Counted from the first letter of the stretch, positions 10,720 through 58,245 are shown. The stretch: DNA of 64,000 nucleotides from an uncultured Nitrospira sp. (GCA_963801505.1 CAWDEY010000002.1:14231-78230); one strand, 5' to 3'. Numbers and translations: made by a program. Notes: a model not told the origin generated them from the letters alone.

Positions 10720-10723
<4 letters not shown>

Positions 10724-12041
10724 ACATATTGATAAAAAACGGACATCTGGTTGACCCCTCTCAGGGGATTGACGGCATATGCGATATACTTGTAGAAAAT
10801 GGAAAAATCAAGGAAGTGCAAAAGCGCGGAAGTGCGGAAGCGCGGAAGAAAAAGAATTCGGAATCCCAAAATCCCGGGCCAGCGGGCTATCAGATCATCG
10901 ACGCAACGGACATGCTCGTCCTTCCAGGCCTTGTTGATATGCATGTTCATTTGAGAGAGCCGGGCTTTGAATACAAGGAGACCATACAGACAGGCACAGA
11001 GGCTGCGGTAGCAGGTGGGATCACCTCGGTCTGCTGCATGCCAAATACAAACCCTGTAAATGACAACGCAAGCGTAACTGATTTCATACTGAAAAGGACA
11101 ATGGAGAGAGGATTTTGCGACGTATTCCCTGTAGGCGCCATCACAAAAGGCCAAAAAGGTGAGGAACTCGCTGAATTCGGTATGATGTACGAGGCAGGGT
11201 GTATCGCCTTTTCTGATGACGGCAGGCCTGTCACGGACAGTCTGATAATGCGCAGGGCACTTGAATATTCAAAGATATTCAACGTGCCGGTAATATCCCA
11301 TGCAGAGGACATCTCCCTTTCTGCCGGAGGGGTAATGAACGAAGGGCTCCTGTCGTTCAAACTCGGGCTCAAGGGCATCCCATCGCAGGCTGAAGAGATC
11401 ATGATCTGCCGTGACATCGCCCTTGCAGAACTTACAGGAGGCCGTCTGCATATAGCGCATGTCTCGACAAAAGGCTCTGTTGAACTGATACGGTCAGCCA
11501 AAAAGAGAGGTATCGCGGATGTCACTGCCGAGACCTGTCCTCATTATTTCAGCATCACAGAAGAGGCAGTCGAAGGATATAACACAAACGCCAAGGTAAA
11601 CCCGCCACTGAGAAGAAATGAGGACGTGGAGGCGATCAAGGAAGGGGCTCACGGACAACACCATAGATGTTATCGTCACAGACCACGCACCGCATCACAG
11701 GGATGAAAAACTCGGGGAATTCGATCTGGCGCCTTCAGGCATTTCAGGGTTTGAAACATCAATAGGCCTGAGCATGAAGCTCGTTGATGAAGGGGTCCTC
11801 ACTCTGAAGCAGCTGATAGAGAAGATGACCCTGAATCCCTCAAAGATCGTAGGCATAAGTAAAGGGACGCTTAGAGCAGGGAGCAGATGCAGACCTCGTA
11901 ATTCTGGATACACACAATGAATATACAGTTGATTCAGCCGGCTTCAGATCAAAGGGAAAGAACACTCCTTTTGAGGGATGGAAACTCAAGGCCAGGCCGG
12001 TTGCAACCATCTCAAAGGGAAGGATATATACATGGCAATAA
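10720..12041 (+). pseudogene. pyrC: dihydroorotase gene carrying two +1 frame breaks
   Basis: [14 protein letters not shown] in frame 1. [19 protein letters not shown] follows in the next frame after the GGGG run at 11644-11647. [15 protein letters not shown]...[10 protein letters not shown] follows in the third frame after about 11885. Stop overlaps the carA ATG. Confidence 0.85.
10824..10878 (+). repeat. bipartite short-tandem-repeat element inside pyrC
   Basis: GCGCGGAA GTGCGGAA GCGCGGAA, spacer GAAAAAG, then AATTCGG AATCCCA AAATCCC; encodes [15 protein letters not shown] within a loop preceding the PGLVD metal site. Confidence 0.7.
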
Positions 12042-13210
12042 AGGCGTTACTCGTTCTCGCAGACGGAATGGTCTTTGAAGGCAGTGGTTTCGGTGCAGAA
12101 GGTGAAACTATCGGGGAAGTGGTCTTTAACACCTCGATGACAGGCTACCAGGAGATACTGACAGACGCCTCCTATAAAGGCCAGATCGTCACCATGACCT
12201 GCACGCAGATAGGCAACTACGGCATTACGGAAGAAGACATCGAATCTGCGGGAGGCATAAAGGCAGAGGGTTTTATCGTAAAGGAGGCCTGTGATTTCCC
12301 GAGCAACTGGCGCTCGTCTTCAAGCCTGATTGGATACATGAAAAAATACAACGTCGTCGGCATTCAGGGCCTGGATACCAGGGCCTTGACTAAACATCTG
12401 AGAAACTGCGGGGCGCAGCCAGGGATCATCTCGACCATTGAGGCAGATCCTTTGAATCTTCTGAAAAAGGTCAGGGCCCATCCCGGGATATCCACCTTTG
12501 ATCTTGTCAAAGAAGTGACGACTGATAAGGTCTATCATTGGACAGAGGGTTGCTGGAAATGGGGACTTAACAATGGGATTGGGGATTCGGGATTGGAGAT
12601 TGGATTAAAAGATAAGACTAACCCCCAGCCCCCAATTCCTAATCCCTATAAAGTGGTTGTATATGACTTTGGTGTCAAGTTCAATATTTTGAGAAACCTT
12701 GTGACTGCGGGGTTCCACGTCACTGTTGTGCCTGCACAGACACCTGCAGAGGCTGTGCTTGAAATGCAATCTGACGGCATCCTGCTGAGCAACGGACCAG
12801 GTGACCCTGAAACAGTGACCTACGCGATAGAAAATACTAAAAAATTACTGGGGAGGAAGCCGATATTCGGCATCTGTCTCGGACATCAGATACTAGGGCT
12901 TGCCCTGGGTGGCAGGACGTACAAACTGAAATTCGGCCACCATGGCGGGAACCACCCTGTCAAGGACTTGTCTACCGGCAAAGTCGAGATAACATCGCAA
13001 AACCACAATTATTGTGTAGACATAAAAAGCCTGCAGGGCAAGGTCAGACTCACGCATACAAACCTCTATGACAACACAGAGGAAGGCATGCAGCATCTGG
13101 AACTCCCGGTCTTTTCAGTGCAGCATCATCCTGAGGCTGGGCCTGGACCAAATGATTCAACACATCTTTTTGGAAGGTTCAGGCAACTGATACAAAACGG
13201 TACATTTTGA
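12032..13210 (+). CDS. carA: carbamoyl-phosphate synthase small (glutaminase) subunit
   Basis: [12 protein letters not shown] start, IFGICLGHQ active-site Cys, HHPE; the ORF-track start at 11978 is an artefactual extension across the pyrC 3-prime end. Confidence 0.93.
12575..12646 (+). repeat. bipartite heptamer-array element inside carA (72 nt)
   Basis: GGGATTG GGGATTC GGGATTG GAGATTG ..., spacer AAAAGATAAGAC, then TAACCCC CAGCCCC CAATTCC TAATCCC; the second arm is roughly the reverse complement of the first. Confidence 0.85.
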
Positions 13211-13839
13211 AGAGTGCGGCAGAGAAAAACTATACGATAGACAAAGAGGAGGGCAAACTCATTTTTACTACTCCGGCATACAGGGCTGATCCTGACAGTG
13301 TTCTGCACAGCGGAATATACAACAGGGAGTTTTCATCCATGCTCGCCTCAGCTACCTCAGGCGGGATTGTGTATATAATTACTGCCATGAATACAGGCAA
13401 TACAATTGCCCGTTCAATGGCCTTTCTGCTGACCTTTGCCGTAAGTTTCCCCTTCTTCAGAAAATATATTTTCAGAGAGCACTTTCTGGAAGTGGTCTTC
13501 GATGCTGCCGCCGGAGAGGCTAAGATACTCAAAAGCCGGATAACAAAGAGATTGAAGGAAACGATCTCTATAAAGAACATAAAGGACATCACCATTGAAA
13601 GCAAAAAGCACGAAGCAGACAATCCTGATGCCGTGAGATTTGTTAAACAAATATCCCTTCAGCACGGAACAGTCATCCCCGGCTTTGGTGATGAAAAAAC
13701 ACTCTTCCTGCTGAAACTGCATCTGTCCGACGGTTCTGAAAGGACCATTTATACGGACAATACTATGCAGGATGTGCTCTCTGCACATGATGAAATAAAG
13801 GAATTTCTGGGATTTATAAATGTGCAGGTGGATAGCTGA
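13207..13839 (+). CDS. hypothetical membrane protein between carA and carB
   Basis: 210-aa ORF; TTG start overlaps the carA stop; two central hydrophobic helices; no family recognised. Confidence 0.4.
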
Positions 13840-14002: not shown

Positions 14003-17000
14003 TTGCCAAAGAGAGAAGATATTAAAAGCATCCTTATCATCGGCTCAGGTCCGATTATCATAGGACAGGCCTGTGAGTTTGATTACTCCGGAACGCAGTC
14101 ATGCAAGGCCCTGAGAGACGAAGGCTACAAGGTCATTCTGGTAAACTCCAATCCGGCAACTATCATGACGGACCCTGAGACCGCTGACGTCACTTACATC
14201 GAGCCGCTCAATGTCGAGATCCTGGAGTTGATCATCGAAAAGGAGCGTCCTGATGCAATACTGCCCACCATGGGCGGTCAGACAGCGCTGAACCTCACAG
14301 TCGAACTCGCTGAAAAAGGCATTCTCGAAAAATACAACGTTGAACTCATAGGGGCCAAACTCCCTGCGATCAAAAAGGCCGAGGACAGGGAGCTGTTCAA
14401 AAAAGCTATGGCGAAGATAGGACTGGATGTCCCCAAAAGCTCGGCAGTAACCAGCATGAAAGAGGGGCTTAAAGCTGTGGAGCATTTAGGGTTCCCCGCA
14501 ATACTCAGACCTGCTTTTACACTCGGTGGAACAGGCGGAGGCATAGCCTACAACATGGAAGAATACACGGAACTCCTAGATAAGGGGCTGAAGCTCAGCC
14601 CCGTAAGACAGGTCCTTGTAGAGGAATCAGCCCTGGGATGGAAAGAGTATGAACTGGAAGTCATGCGGGACACGAAAGACAATGTTGTTATCATATGTTC
14701 CATAGAGAATTTTGATCCCATGGGAGTGCACACAGGGGATTCAATAACCGTGGCACCGGCCCAGACACTGACTGACAAGGAATATCAGAGGATGAGAGAC
14801 GCCTCTGTCGCGATCATCCGCGAAATAGGCGTTGACACGGGAGGGTCGAACATACAGTTTGCGATCAATCCTAAAAACGGCCGCATGATCGTCATAGAAA
14901 TGAACCCGAGGGTCTCAAGGAGTTCCGCTCTTGCGTCAAAGGCAACAGGTTTCCCGATTGCCAAGATAGCCGCCAAACTCGCGGTAGGACTTACCCTCGA
15001 TGAGATAAAAAATGACATAACACGTGAAACACCTGCATCCTTTGAGCCTACGCTGGACTATGTGGTGACCAAGTTCCCGAGGTTCGCCTTTGAAAAATTT
15101 CCCGAGGCAGACCCTGTGCTGACCACCCAGATGAAGTCTGTAGGAGAGGCCATGTCCATAGGCAGGACCTTTAAGGAATCCCTGCAGAAGGCCCTCCGGA
15201 GCCTTGAGACCGGAAGTTATGGTTTTGAGGAAGTCGACGGCGACCCTGACAGGATAAAGACAAAGCTGAAGATCCCCGGCGCTGAACGGATATGGTATAT
15301 CGCCCAGGCCATGCGTATTGGCATGGATATAAATACAATACATGAATATACACAGATAGACCCGTGGTTCCTGGAAAATATAAAGCAGATACTTGATATG
15401 GAAGATAAGATCAGGGCGGAAGCCCGGAAAAGGGAAAGAGCAGAAGGTCAGAAGCAGAAAAACATCGGCCCTTTGGACTTCCGGTCTTCAGCACTTCAGA
15501 ACCTCAGCACTATTGTCCGTGAGGCCAAGGAATACGGGTTCTCTGACAGAAGGCTGGCACAACTGCTCGGCACCGCGGAAATGGATGTCAGGGGATTCAG
15601 GAAGAAACATGGCATAGTCCCGATATATAAGATCGTGGACACCTGCGCTGCGGAGTTCGAGGCCTTTACCCCCTATCTTTATTCGACCTATGAAAGACCG
15701 TTCTACAAAATACAGGAGTCAGAAGTCAGAAGTCAGAAGTCAGAAGAAAAAAACAACTCGGAACTCGGAACCCGGAACTCGGAACTATTTTTTGATTGCG
15801 AGGCAAACCCCACAGACAGGCAGAAGGTGATCATTCTGGGGTCAGGCCCAAACAGGATAGGACAGGGAGTTGAATTCGATTATTGCTGTGTCCACGCAGT
15901 ATTTGCCCTGAGAGAACTAGGATATGAGACCATAATGATCAACTGCAACCCCGAGACAGTAAGTACAGACTACGATACCTCGGACAGACTCTATTTTGAA
16001 CCGCTCACTATCGAAGACACACTGAATATCATCGAAAAAGAGAAACCTATCGGCGTGATAGTCCAGGTAGGAGGTCAGACTCCTCTGAAGCTGGCGGTGC
16101 CCCTTGAAAAGGAAGGCATCAGGATCCTCGGGACCTCCCCGGATTCCATAGACCGCGCTGAGGACAGGAAACGTTTCAAGCAACTCCTCCATAAACTTCA
16201 GCTGAGACAGCCTGAAAGCGATACAGCCATGTCCGTGGAGGAAGCTGTCTCGGCAGCCCACAAAATCGGTTATCCTGTAATGGTACGGCCTTCCTATGTG
16301 CTCGGAGGAAGGGCCATGGAGATCGTCTATGATGAAGAGTCTATACGCGATTATATGGAGCGAACTGTAAAAGGCGCTCCCAAGCACCCCATCCTTGTCG
16401 ACAAATATCTGGATGATGCGATAGAGGTGGATGTTGATGCCCTCTCTGACGGCACGGACGTGATAATCGGCGGGGTAATGGAACATATAGAAGAGGCAGG
16501 CATACATTCCGGGGATTCGGCCTGCTCGCTGCCCCCCTATTCCCTTAACAACGATATCATCGCGGAGATCAAGCGGCAGACCAGCGCCCTGGCGCTCGAG
16601 CTGGGAGTTATCGGTCTTATGAACATACAGTTTGCGGTAAAAAAAGACGAGATCTATATCCTTGAGGTCAATCCCCGGGCTTCCAGAACTGTCCCTTTTG
16701 TCAGCAAGGCCACCGGCGTGCCGCTGGCAAAGCTCGCGGCAAAGATAATGGTCGGCAAGACCCTTAAGGAACTCGGGATAACAGAGGAAAAGACAATATC
16801 ACATGTCGCAGTGAAAGAAGCTGTATTTCCCTTTGACAAATTTGCCGGCGTTGACTCCATACTCGGGCCTGAGATGAAGTCAACCGGAGAGGTCATGGGA
16901 ATAGATGAAGATTTTGGACGGGCCTTCGCCAAGGCCCAGGCCTCCTCAGACAATGTGCTTCCCATAACAGGAAAGATAGTCATCAGCATCAGAGACAAGG

Positions 17001-18666: not shown

Positions 18667-18708
18667 AAAAGGCGGCGCGTACTTTTGGTATGCGCCGCCT
18701 TTTTTATT
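18667..18708 (+). terminator. Rho-independent terminator after pfk
   Basis: GGCGGCGC-13 nt loop-GCGCCGCC followed by TTTTTTATT. Confidence 0.8.
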
Positions 18709-32651: not shown

Positions 32652-32655
32652 TAGA

Positions 32656-32731
32656 AAATCTCCCCTCTCCCCTCTTTGCCAAAGAGGGGATTGTCCCTCC
32701 CTTTGGAAAAGGGAGGTCAGGAGGGATTCTC
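32656..32731. repeat. double GC-hairpin repeat, family D copy 1
   Basis: CCCCTCTTTGCCAAAGAGGGG and TCCCTCCCTTTGGAAAAGGGAGG hairpins; matches 45289-45385. Confidence 0.8.
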
Positions 32732-38114: not shown

Positions 38115-38498
38115 TCATTTCCTCATGTATTGAAGGAGTATTGCTTCATCCTTGCCTGAGCCGGCCCTTGAGGTCACCTTCTTCATATGATATTCCATGT
38201 CTTCCGTCTTTATCTCGTAATCTATTCCGTTTTTTGTGCCTTTAAGTTCTATAAGTTTACCGGTCCTGTAAAGGTAGAGGTCCTCCTTTGCCTGCAACAC
38301 CAGTTTGAGGCTGTCCTTCTTCCTGTCAAAAATATCGATATGGTATGAAAACGAAGTGAGCACCAGCAGGAATACCCCGCTTACAATAGCAAGCGCCACA
38401 AGGACCTCAATAAGGGTAAAGCCTCTGTGGGGCTCGGGGATTGGGGATTGGGGATTTGCACCGCATGAACTATGCGCCATTAACTTCTTGTTACTCAT
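38115..38498 (-). CDS. gspI: type II secretion minor pseudopilin (GspI-like) with repeat-expanded leader
   Basis: [17 protein letters not shown]; 127 aa; the leader contains ANPQSPIPEP, encoded by an AATCCCC heptamer array. Confidence 0.6.
   Translation of the reverse strand: MSNKKLMAHSSCGANPQSPIPEPHRGFTLIEVLVALAIVSGVFLLVLTSFSYHIDIFDRKKDSLKLVLQAKEDLYLYRTGKLIELKGTKNGIDYEIKTEDMEYHMKKVTSRAGSGKDEAILLQYMRK
38429..38456 (-). repeat. heptamer array (GGGGCTC GGGGATT x3 on the plus strand) in the gspI leader
   Basis: Four contiguous 7-nt units read directly from the sequence. Confidence 0.85.
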
Positions 38499-39073: not shown

Positions 39074-39589
39074 TCACTCCAACTCCCAGCTCTTTATGTC
39101 GGCGTCCTTGCCTTCTCCTTCCGGCTTTCCGTCTGCCCCATAGGAGATGATGTCAAAGTCGCCGTGTGTTCCAGGAGATATATAAATAAATGGATTTCCC
39201 CAGGAGTCCTTTGGTATTTTAGTCTTCTCCAGGTAACCGTCTTCTTTGTATTTTTTCGGTATTGGTTCTGTCTCCGGCTTTTTAACAAGGGCCTCGAGCC
39301 CCTGATCTGTCGTTGGATATAAACCGTTATCGAGCTTGTAGAGCTTCAGGGCTGTTTCAAGGTTCTTCATCTGCAGCTTTGACTCTGCTATTTTGGCATC
39401 GTCAGTACGACCAAGCATCTTCGGCGCCACCAGAGCGGCGAGTATGCCAAGAATGAATACCACGACAAGCACCTCAATAAGAGTAAAGCCCTTTGGGGAT
39501 TGGGGGTCAGGAATTGGGGGTTGGGGTCCGAAAAAACTCTCAACTCTCAACTCTAAACCCTCAACTTTCTGCAAACTGTTTATCCTCAT
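39074..39589 (-). CDS. gspG: type II secretion major pseudopilin GspG with repeat-expanded leader
   Basis: [25 protein letters not shown]...[20 protein letters not shown]...WGNPFIY is a classic GspG core; it is preceded by a 33-residue leader. Confidence 0.88.
39495..39570 (-). repeat. bipartite heptamer-array element in the gspG leader
   Basis: Plus strand: GGGGATT GGGGGTC AGGAATT GGGGGTT GGGGTCC, spacer GAAAAA, then ACTCTCA ACTCTCA ACTCTAA ACCCTCA ACTTTCT. Confidence 0.85.
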
Positions 39590-45288: not shown

Positions 45289-45385
45289 AAAATCTCCCAT
45301 TTCCATAAAATCTCCCCTCACCCCTCTTTTCCAAAGAGGGGAATTATTCCTCCCTTTGGCAAAGGGAGGTTAGGAGGGATTTTCC
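45289..45385. repeat. double GC-hairpin repeat, family D copy 2
   Basis: CCCCTCTTTTCCAAAGAGGGG and TCCTCCCTTTGGCAAAGGGAGG; matches 32656-32731. Confidence 0.8.
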
Positions 45386-50770: not shown

Positions 50771-52974
50771 TTAAAGCGGCCTGGTCACTATCGTAGGGGT
50801 TAAAAAGATGAGCATTTCCTTAATGTTAGGTCCTGTCACATTTTTTGTTTTAAACAGCCAGCCAAGACCGGGTATCTTGCTTAAAAGAGGCACCCCGTCT
50901 TCACTTTCAGTTACACTTGTTGTGTATATGCCACCCAATACCAGTGTCTCACCACTCTTGATAAGGGCATTGGTAGTCAGAGTTTCTTTGTATTGATAAC
51001 TGTATTGTTACCGGCAGTGCCGCTTTCGATGCTGTCGTCTGATGCAGTGACCTTTAGCTGGATATAGCCGTCAGGCGTGATCTTCGGAGTGACATCAAGG
51101 CTCAATGTGGCCTTTTTCTCCTCTGTTGACGGCACGCCTGTTGTACTTACTGTTTGAACAAAGAATGAACGTCCCTGCTGTATGTTGGCAGCTTCGTTGT
51201 CCATGGTTAAGATCCTCGGGTTTGATAAGGTCTTGGACTTGCCGATGGATTCAAGGGCGGAAAGGGACAGATTAACCTTTACGGTGCTGGCATTGCCTAC
51301 AGTAAAATCTAAGGCGCCCCCGGTATTTGCAGTTGCTGGTGCCTGCTGCTACAGTCGGGGTATTTACTGAAAAGTTACCGCCAAGCGTATTCGGATAAGA
51401 CGGGACGTGCAAATGACCCGCCCCATCTTATCCCCAATGATTCGCTATAATTGGTCGCAACTTCAACTATCTTTGCCTCTATCATCACCTGAGGCTTTGG
51501 AACATCCATTATAGTCACAAGCTCTTTTATTTTATCTATACTCTTCTGTGTGTCCTTTAAAATAAGCGTGTTCATCCTCGTGTCTATTGCTATGCTGCCC
51601 CGCGAAGTAAGCAGTTTGCCGCTATTTACAGCAGCTGTTGATGTCAGTCGGCAGACGCATAGTTGACGCGTACTATCTCCTGCTCAAGGTCTTCTGTATT
51701 TTTCTCCTTTCTCCTTTGCTTTTTGCTTTTCCTCGGACATCCTGGTCAACACATTGGTCGGTGCAATCCAAAGGATATTGCCTTCAATGGATTTGGACAG
51801 GGGTGGTTTATTGAGTATTGAGTATTATATCCAACGCCTGGTCCCATGGCACATTTAAAAGCTTAATGGTAACATTTCCCTTTACAGCCGGATGCAGCAC
51901 CAGATTGTAGCCGCTGACATCTGCCAGGAGTCTGAATATGGGCCTGACATCCGCATCTTGAAAATCAAGAGATATTTTCTTCCCTGTATATTCGCCTTCA
52001 ATCAGTTTTTCCGGTTCCTGCACAGGCTGGACCGGCTTTGCAGGTACCTCTGCAGCAGTTGCTGCAACAACTGTTTTTTCGGATTTATTATGGGCCTGAG
52101 ATACTGATGTCTCCTTAGCCAGCAGTGAAATCTCAATGGAATTCCCTGTGGCAATGACGTCAAAATTAGTTTTCTGTTTCAGGTCCAGTACCAGCCTCAG
52201 CTTACCCTTGTGTTTTCCGGCCCTTATACCCTTTAAGGGCGAGATTACACTGTCCGGCAAAGTGGTATTCAATGTTACCTCAGGTATATCTATTACAATT
52301 CTTTCATTTACCGGAAAAACGTTAGGTATTATAGTGCCATTTCCTGTTATTAATACTTTTACAGCATCTGCAGTTTTTTTGATTTCTACTCCAGCGATCT
52401 CGGTTGCTTTAGGCACAGGCTGAATATTCTCTTCAACTGCTTTTAATGACATTAGCCGGGGGTTCAGTACTAGCCAAAGCAGGCCCATACGGACTTGCCT
52501 TCAGGGTCTTTAGGTTCCGGCAAAGCAACAGGCTCTTTAGGCTCTGACAAAACAACAGGCTCCTCTTTCTTAATTGAAAGCACGAGGGTATTGTCGTTGT
52601 AAGAAGGAGACACCGCAGACGGGAGTTTGCAGTATAATATCAATTTTAGCCACTGCATCCGGTGTATTGATCTGTTGTGGTATTATCTCTGTTATGCCGG
52701 ATTTATCTGAGACAATCTTGCTTGTGAATTTACCTACTGACATCCCGGGAATTTCTACCGTAACTTTATACGGATCATTTGAATTATATACCGTATAAAT
52801 AAAATTCTTATTACTCTTGATCACTACATCAGCATCCTCTATCGTAATATCAGTAATAACTGCTATTTCTTCTCCTGAAGATGCTTCTTTCTTTCCGGAT
52901 GTTGTAGCACAGCCAAGCAAAAGCATTAACCCCACAATTAATAAACAGAGCTTTAACATTTTATTATTTTTCAT
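50771..52974 (-). pseudogene. pilQ: type IV pilus secretin pilQ, heavily fragmented
   Basis: Lipoprotein signal, two AMIN-like domains, N0/N1 and secretin-domain peptides (LGIRWGG, NPRILTMDNEAANIQQG, VPLLSKIPGLGWLFK), spread over about 8 frame changes and stops. Confidence 0.85.
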
Positions 52975-58185: not shown

Positions 58186-58245
58186 GGGATTGGAGGTTGG
58201 GTATTAGAGATTAGTTATTTACTAACCCCTGGCCCCTAACTCCTG
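58186..58245. repeat. bipartite heptamer-array element, intergenic (infB-rbfA)
   Basis: GGGATTG GAGGTTG GGTATTA GAGATTA, spacer GTTATTT, then ACTAACC CCTGGCC CCTAACT CCTGC. Confidence 0.75.

Follow-up and report, generated by a model that had tools for sequence, protein, structure and literature searches.

The 64,000-nucleotide stretch of an uncultured Nitrospira sp. genome analysed here (GCA_963801505.1 CAWDEY010000002.1:14231-78230; hereafter the window) carries a 72-base element, built from two opposed arrays of short tandem repeats, inside carA, the gene for the small subunit of carbamoyl-phosphate synthase. The gene occupies 12032..13210 on the plus strand and the element 12575..12646, corresponding to codons 182-205. 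The identity of CarA is established by PDB matches to the E. coli protein (E 1e-113); translation likely starts at 12032, as in the orthologues (start MAIKALL), and the stop is at 13210. Judged by its CarA relatives, the window belongs to Thermodesulfovibrionia (Nitrospirota).

The element consists of three parts: a G-rich arm, an A-rich spacer, and a C-rich arm. The G-rich arm (12575..12607, plus strand) reads GGGATTG GGGATTC GGGATTG GAGATTG GATTA, that is, four heptamers plus GATTA; Tandem Repeats Finder (TRF) reports GGGATTG at 4.1 copies in the element. The spacer, which would form the loop, is AAAGATAAGAC (12608..12618, plus strand). The C-rich arm (12619..12646, plus strand), TAACCCC CAGCCCC CAATTCC TAATCCC, is approximately the reverse complement of the G-rich arm and encodes NPQPPIPNP. 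An initial annotation made from the sequence alone had described these same parts, had called the second arm an approximate reverse complement of the first, and had placed the segment in the linker between two CarA domains. The reading of 12575-12646 is exact, and a repeat finder returns 27-nucleotide arms with 74% Watson-Crick pairing, or a 28-pair stem when G:U pairs are counted. The 72 bases stand in the carA frame and are translated as residues 182-205, which fall between the Pfam domains CPSase_sm_chain (residues 7-133) and GATase (residues 209-385); as GATase starts at 209, the insert ends three residues upstream of the glutaminase domain. In an AlphaFold model of CarA the region of the insert (residues 174-200) is predicted to be coil with a predicted local distance difference test score (pLDDT) below 50; because the whole model is mediocre (mean pLDDT 65.7, with other low regions too), this support is treated as weak.

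The periodic, inverted architecture is clearly non-random. The window holds six period-7 arrays and two period-8 arrays, compared with 0.12 and 0.03 per dinucleotide shuffle, and seven long hairpins compared with 1.3 per shuffle. The long imperfect mRNA stem that the initial annotation proposed can form: the exact 72 nucleotides fold as sense RNA at -29.8 kcal/mol (z -3.2), a stability reached by 0 of 200 shuffles. Folding of 12560-12660, the 101-nucleotide interval put forward in that annotation as a check, rises above shuffles only marginally (z -1.55; 11 of 200 shuffles as stable), whereas the exact element is clearly above them. Antisense RNA nearly matches the sense strand (-28.6 kcal/mol, z -2.0), and the element as single-stranded DNA folds no better than shuffles (z +0.09). 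The values for the 101-nucleotide RNA and for single-stranded DNA indicate that much of the hairpin stability comes from G-rich/C-rich composition; the thermodynamic excess beyond composition is moderate. A DNA hairpin or cruciform was rejected as an interpretation, since the single-stranded DNA fold does not improve on that of shuffles.

Further copies were sought with an nhmmer profile built from ten orthologous carA copies, a search that in this genome covers the window. A full copy lies in the leader of gspG (39493..39569, plus strand; gspG 39074-39589, minus strand) and comprises a G-rich arm, a GAAAAAA spacer, and a CTCTCAA-type arm; the profile matches it over its full length (39496-39562, E 1.5e-5), and it folds at -32.6 kcal/mol on the plus strand, antisense to the gene, and at -22.2 kcal/mol in mRNA sense. 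A half copy, consisting of the GGGGATT array only, lies in the leader of a GspI-like pseudopilin (38429..38456, plus strand; gene 38115-38498, minus strand), where it encodes NPQSPIPEP; it includes (GGGGATT)3 at 38436-38456, and the profile match spans 38430-38462. The unit of the carA element thus also occurs in gspG and the gspI-like gene, as the initial annotation had stated. A fourth copy in the window is intergenic, between the infB stop and the rbfA start (58186..58245, plus strand; both genes on the minus strand), and was found by profile (E 1.3e-7) and alignment. Among relatives, full-length matches occur in carB at loci L003 (E 6.7e-11) and L083. A-rich spacers recur in other element copies and in other array pairs.

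In pseudopilins the N-methylation motif usually starts at about residue 5-10. It starts at residue 33 in GspG and at residue 24 in the GspI-like protein, and the extra leader residues before GFTLIE (ANPQSPIPEPHR in the GspI-like protein) are the translated C-rich arm. Pseudopilin leaders are cleaved off by prepilin peptidase, and the mature pseudopilins are therefore untouched by the element. Inspection of the flanks of the four window copies reveals no direct repeat or target-site duplication, and no parent insertion sequence, as expected of a miniature inverted-repeat transposable element, was identified in the 64-kb window. The G-rich arm is 5' on the plus strand in all four copies (12575, 38429, 39493, and 58186), with host genes on both strands, a sample too small to carry weight; a link between this orientation and replication was dropped, because GC skew may simply follow gene strand and four copies are too few.

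Two neighbouring genes contain array pairs of related layout. The inter-domain linker of carB contains, in frame, (AGTCAGA) x5, AAAAAAAC, and (AACTCGG) x4.6 (15710..15786, plus strand); pyrC contains, also in frame, GGAAGYGC x3-4, AAAAAG, and AATTCGG AATCCCA AAATCCC (10812..10875, plus strand). In both pairs the arms are separated by an A-run and are not complementary, and neither pair is a hairpin: every one of 200 shuffles of the carB pair is more structured than the pair itself (fold z +3.1), and the pyrC pair has a fold z of +0.5. The CarB linker (YSTYE…CEANP) measures 36 amino acids in array-free genomes and 49-95 in the clade, where it is filled by differing arrays or palindromes, genome by genome. 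The window, L001, and L002 combine left and right arrays differently at the carB site. Further paired arrays in relatives are found at the start of feoB and at two carB sites (L091 20923-20980, L086 6424-6720, and L002 9467-9555), and include a 7.4-copy (CAGGGGT) array adjoining (AACTCCG)4.6. The dihydroorotase gene pyrC (10720-12041) is itself split over three frames by two single-base insertions (at ~11638 and ~11869) relative to four relatives, and is either a pseudogene or a product of assembly indel errors. Phase variation by gain or loss of units was considered and rejected, as both pyrC frameshifts are single-base insertions away from any array.

Alignment of 80 genomic loci and 120 proteins indicates what fills the CarA site in relatives. 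The best species-level match is the CarA of L001, 88% identical; the best in the protein collection is 89-90% identical. The segment bounded by WKWC and VVVYDFG is hypervariable within the clade. Many relatives (among them L007, L008, L015, L022, L025, L027, P0063, and P0086-P0092) have CAVEKGxPVLK only, in a CarA of 365-373 amino acids; relatives at ~75-80% CarA identity have no insert, and outgroup linkers are likewise short. The window's linker is ~19 residues longer than in repeat-free relatives, which makes the 24 codons an insertion specific to the lineage, a possibility that the initial annotation had proposed to check; it had named a linker of equal length in repeat-free genomes as evidence to the contrary, and the alignment instead gives the shorter one. 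It had also suggested looking for presence/absence polymorphism among close genomes. Such polymorphism is seen at the genus level only, since the closest database CarA at 89-90% identity puts strain-level comparison beyond reach.

The GGGATTG/AATCCCC type found in the window occupies the CarA site in at least ten independent assemblies (JGI, ENA, NCBI, and Logan). Alternative fillers are present even at 85-90% CarA identity to the window. AGAAGTC arrays occur together with arrays of ATTCACN or CTCATCC; there are octamers (CCGAACTT and GTATCAAA, for example) and lone arrays, (AGACTCC)4 being one. Palindromes are found as well, one GC-rich and nested within an array pair (L092), the other of the PPHPPLxKGG type (L009, L010, and L091). 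The units of an AGTCAGA/ATTCAC pair at this site are not mutual reverse complements, as judged by inspection of a copy that was not folded. Crude parsimony on a neighbour-joining tree of 121 sequences gives at least 36 changes of insert type. The carA gene is intact in L088, which has lost most of arm 1, and in L089, which has lost all of arm 2. Outside the clade, L051, L053, and L063 (Binatia-like, deltaproteobacterial, and Methylomirabilota genomes) carry their own heptamer arrays in the CarA loop, and near relatives are without them. Swapped, arm-deleted, and independently array-bearing sites together indicate that this loop tolerates nearly anything and has been colonised repeatedly.

A census of the window and the 80 loci (935 kb in total) yields 123 arrays of period 7, 52 of period 6, 37 of period 8, 5 of period 9, and 2 of period 10. 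The 160 arrays of period 7 or 8 are built from 119 different canonical units and mostly contain 3-5 copies; many of them are paired. For 107 arrays the reading frame stays open over 50 codons or more on either side. Inverted partners are enriched: 24 of the 160 have one no more than 75 nucleotides away, compared with 4-5 in reverse or complement controls. Array density outside carA is 2.47 per 10 kb in loci with a long CarA and 0.96 in those with a short one; at least one array is present in 23 of 26 long-CarA loci and in 17 of 43 short-CarA loci (Fisher 5.6e-5, not corrected for phylogeny).

Conservation within the insert was assessed on ten carA orthologues, giving 24 codons and 45 non-independent pairs. 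Mean nucleotide identity is 0.73 in the insert, compared with 0.49 at four-fold sites and 0.90 at codon positions 1+2 of the flanks; the two arms reach 0.79 and 0.70, compared with about 0.5 in adjacent linker codons. The ratio of nonsynonymous to synonymous differences per site (pN/pS) is 0.60 in the insert and 0.14 in the flanks, indicating relaxed constraint on the peptide. Synonymous divergence (pS) is 0.38 in the insert and 0.62 in the flanks, and is lower in 40 of the 45 pairs, which are not independent. Given this reduced synonymous change the DNA itself appears conserved; it seems to be kept nearer the family consensus than would be the case for neutral sites, a hint that the nucleic acid, DNA or RNA, is itself under selection. 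Selection at the level of the element would suit the pattern, as would gene conversion among copies or a host nucleic-acid function; 24 codons cannot separate the three.

Dispersed heptamer arrays have been described in other bacteria. Repeats of GGGGA(T/C)T in Nostoc PCC 7120 and of GGGAATC in Xanthomonas are scattered around the chromosome and strongly favour four units; they are mainly intergenic (68-93%), with an intragenic minority, and form G-quadruplexes (G4) in vitro. In Xanthomonas, 70-75 convergent pairs of arrays could fold into stem-loops (Rehm et al., 2015; PMC4692102). The carA element resembles this class in its tandem heptamers (four GGGATTG/GGGATTC/GAGATTG units at 12575-12602), with a GGGGATT unit in the family identical to that of Nostoc; in its dispersal, with four copies in 64 kb and others in relatives' carB; and in arrays of mostly 3-5 units. 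The Xanthomonas subclass is matched by the convergent arms (74% complementary, z -3.2) and by the enrichment of inverted partners. In contrast to the class as described, four intact G-tracts are absent, as the arm in the window has three, and the location is not mainly intergenic: three window copies are coding, 107 of the 160 arrays lie in long open frames, and of the four copies the infB-rbfA one fits the intergenic, gene-end location. Also unlike that class, the element stands in frame in a housekeeping enzyme of a Nitrospirota host, in a setting where many non-G-rich units behave alike.

Geobacter metallireducens contains 49 copies of an element of four tandem heptanucleotides, GGGACCG/GGACCGG, and also has sites where arrays of 3-5 tandem units are paired across opposite strands (Aklujkar et al., 2009; PMC2700814). 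These share with the carA element the four tandem heptamers, the high copy number, and the occurrence within and between genes; the unit sequence differs, so the two are of the same kind and not of the same family. The Geobacter elements were read as possible regulatory RNAs or regulator-binding sites, with no comparison of sites across relatives, and turnover at protein loops is undescribed there. Rickettsia palindromic elements are ~100-150 bp long and lie in frame in unrelated housekeeping genes at positions compatible with the protein fold and its function, where they contribute a peptide without a known role (Ogata et al., 2000; summarised in PMC10969869). The in-frame repeats of carA, carB, pyrC, and the gsp leaders, in loops that alignments suggest are permissive, are similar in this respect; they are set apart by the description of the Rickettsia elements, which form few families in an obligate intracellular alphaproteobacterium, whereas the carA element is 72 bp long and built from heptamers. 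Cyanobacterial STRR heptamers are tandem heptamers dispersed in the genome, and tiny mobile repeats are reported to nest in heptamer arrays (work attributed to Mazel et al., 1990, and Elhai et al., 2008), mainly in non-coding DNA. The GC-rich palindromes nested in relatives' CarA and CarB arrays resemble such nested repeats, in a different phylum.

Two further groups are more distant. TAACTGA occurs in sets of 2-6 in Beggiatoaceae, Cyanobacteria, and Bacteroidetes, with a dispersed and patchy distribution and with discussion of its translatable orientations (MacGregor, 2015; PMC4679880); unlike the carA element, these sets use a single favoured unit that contains stop codons, lie mostly just upstream of start codons, and are direct (1 indirect among 170). 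REPs and REPINs are short palindromes, single or as doublets, that lie outside genes and go with a RAYT transposase (PMC3116915); the present elements, unlike REPs, are mostly inside genes and consist of tandem units. The finding belongs to the known, unexplained class of heptamer elements; less familiar are the Nitrospirota host, the high in-frame proportion, and the rapid replacement of array types at fixed protein linkers.

The interpretation we favour, with a probability of roughly 60%, is that the 72 bp belong to a dispersed and probably selfish family of paired-heptamer repeats, one copy of which has been kept in a permissive loop, and that the hairpin is a trait of the family. A member of this family would be built from about four G-rich heptamers of the GGGGATT type, an A-rich spacer of ~8-16 nucleotides, and about four complementary C-rich units. 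Elements would arise or insert throughout the genome and selection would purge the copies that break proteins, so that survivors would accumulate in frame and stop-free at harmless sites. Such sites would include the variable surface loop before the first CarA glutaminase strand, the CarB linker, the pyrC loop, and the cleaved pseudopilin leaders, all of which would accept extra disordered residues rich in Gly/Pro or in charge. The encoded peptide would be a tolerated passenger, and the hairpin would reflect either how the element arose, as an inverted pair of arrays, or what it needs for its own propagation or retention, rather than regulation of carA. Candidate routes of spread are whole-unit copying, gene conversion between copies, insertion into existing repeats, and local slippage.

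Several observations weigh against this interpretation. No transposase, target-site duplication, or excision/insertion intermediate was found in the 64-kb window, so that mobility is read from dispersed, similar copies only. The diversity of 119 units among 160 arrays fits local slippage or de novo birth equally well as copying. The low synonymous divergence could equally reflect a host-beneficial RNA or DNA structure or a protein-binding motif, and the insert statistics come from 24 codons and non-independent pairs. The structural model is too poor to prove that the CarA loop is disordered.

One alternative, which is unlikely, dispenses with mobility: arrays would be born locally by slippage or template switching in unconstrained linkers, with convergent units and with hairpins made by fold-back synthesis. 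The very high unit diversity is in keeping with this, as is the observation that units at orthologous sites lie one or two transitions apart across all copies (AGTCAGA, AGTCAGG, and GGTCAGG, in carB and carA). The lack of target-site duplications and of a transposase points the same way, and the excess of heptamers in bacteria has been ascribed to polymerase slippage (work cited in PMC4692102 and PMC4679880). However, unrelated loci are similar over the full arm-spacer-arm length, with the spacer shared and the variant units in matching order, and the PPHPPLxKGG-type and GC-rich palindromes occupy or nest at the same sites in a manner resembling insertion. Units within the carA clade are also positionally orthologous (unit 2, for example, ends in C in nearly all copies), which argues for little recent slippage.

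It is improbable that the stem is a selected feature of carA mRNA, whether it slows ribosomes to allow folding of the CarA domains or controls stability or processing of the pyr operon mRNA. The sense fold of the element, the reduced synonymous change, and the position at a domain boundary agree with such a role. Pairing also agrees, with 77% of stem cells paired across the ten orthologues in the register of the window, 57% after a slide of one column, and ~30% after two or three; but column shuffles give 76% pairing, 22 of 500 shuffles reach the observed value, and covariation is not significant in these orthologues, with 3 double-change pairs compared with 1.6 expected. RNAalifold on the same set settled on another register, a weak one (-8.2 kcal/mol, covariation term +0.13); it is uninformative because heptamer arrays permit many slipped pairings, and was replaced by counts of pairs in the window structure. 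Stability among the orthologues varies from -13.9 kcal/mol (z -1.1) to -32.3 kcal/mol (z -4.7). Either arm can be deleted with carA intact (L088 and L089), and the gene is also intact in relatives with one arm, non-complementary pairs, or no insert, close relatives with non-hairpin repeats at the site being among them. The element occurs at unrelated loci and antisense to other genes, and the gspG copy has its stabler fold on the antisense strand. Rfam 15 at the gathering threshold gives zero matches in the whole window. The variable orthologue folds, the lack of covariation, the unfolded carB and pyrC pairs, and the absence of an Rfam match together leave a function of the stem in carA expression unsupported. 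What stands from the initial annotation is the fold, the linker site, and the lineage-specific codons, and not the view of the stem as a device of the carA mRNA.

A more far-reaching possibility, which we likewise regard as improbable, is an active system in Thermodesulfovibrionia and scattered other lineages that installs, copies, and replaces heptamer or octamer arrays of about four units, preferably in existing repeats or hairpins. Over the divergence of a genus, such a system would rewrite fixed, permissive linkers in essential proteins repeatedly, and the arrays would be under selection at the nucleotide level, read in a 7-nucleotide register by a protein or serving as the substrate of the system.

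Less likely again is that the arrays are genome-wide marks acting as binding sites or non-B-DNA signals, either as G4 or i-motif or through a 7-nucleotide register read by a Csp-/S1-type factor or a global regulator. The preference for about four units and the GGGGATT unit match the Nostoc elements that form G4 in vitro, synonymous divergence is low, and conservation is phase-specific, with positions G1, G3, T5, and T6 of the G-arm heptamers 85-90% conserved in the ten orthologues and position 7 free. The fourfold heptanucleotides of Geobacter were annotated as putative global regulatory elements (PMC2700814). However, the G-arm of the window has only three tracts of at least three G, and the canonical G4 motif of four such tracts is present in 3 of the 10 orthologous G-arms, that of the window not included; a G-quadruplex was rejected as an interpretation because the motif is mostly broken. 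The number of different units (119 in 160 arrays) speaks against a single binding protein, unrelated units replace the arrays at the same site in close relatives, and no function has been demonstrated in the published heptamer systems.

An adaptive linker peptide (…NPQPPIPNP) that tunes inter-domain communication in CarA or docking to CarB is very improbable: in-frame retention across more than ten assemblies and an identity somewhat higher at codon positions 1 and 2 than at position 3 (0.78, 0.77, and 0.65) would suit it, but pN/pS is well above that of the flanks (0.60 vs 0.14), relatives at 75-90% identity have unrelated peptides or none, and the same DNA yields the same motif in unrelated proteins and in cleaved leaders.

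The window contains other features of note. A different palindromic repeat of ~77 nucleotides, AAAATCTCCCCTC…CCAAAGAGGGG…CCCTTTGGCAAAGGGAGG, is present in two intergenic copies (32654-32731 and 45307-45383); TTGSCAA-centred palindromes similar to it, read as PPHPPLxKGG, lie in frame in CarA and CarB of relatives (L009, L010, and L091). Between carA and carB there is an open reading frame of 210 amino acids (13207-13839) with no Pfam match, which is kept in position and size (203-209 amino acids, no Pfam match) in all relatives' contigs read. A perfect 17-bp GC-rich stem with A4/T4 flanks (AAAAGGCGGCGCGTAC…GTATGCGCCGCCTTTT, 18667-18703) lies where plus- and minus-strand genes converge and looks like a bidirectional terminator. 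At ~19000-20000 genes switch from the plus to the minus strand and the GC and AT skews change sign, a switch that may follow gene strand or mark a replication landmark. A 27-nucleotide tandem unit in 2.3 copies (52502-52562) has the top TRF score in the window (87).

The carA element extends the four-unit heptamer elements, an old and unexplained class known from Nostoc, Xanthomonas, and Geobacter, to another phylum. For annotators and modellers it carries a warning: where housekeeping proteins of Nitrospirota contain odd stretches that are Gly/Pro-rich or SEVRSQK-like, these represent repeat DNA in translation rather than functional motifs. A natural experiment is also at hand, as some sister genomes are rich in arrays and others free of them, and fixed sites (the loop of CarA, the linker of CarB, the leaders of the pilins) are comparable across hundreds of assemblies; comparison at such fixed sites could reveal how heptamer repeats originate, how they spread, and how they are tolerated.

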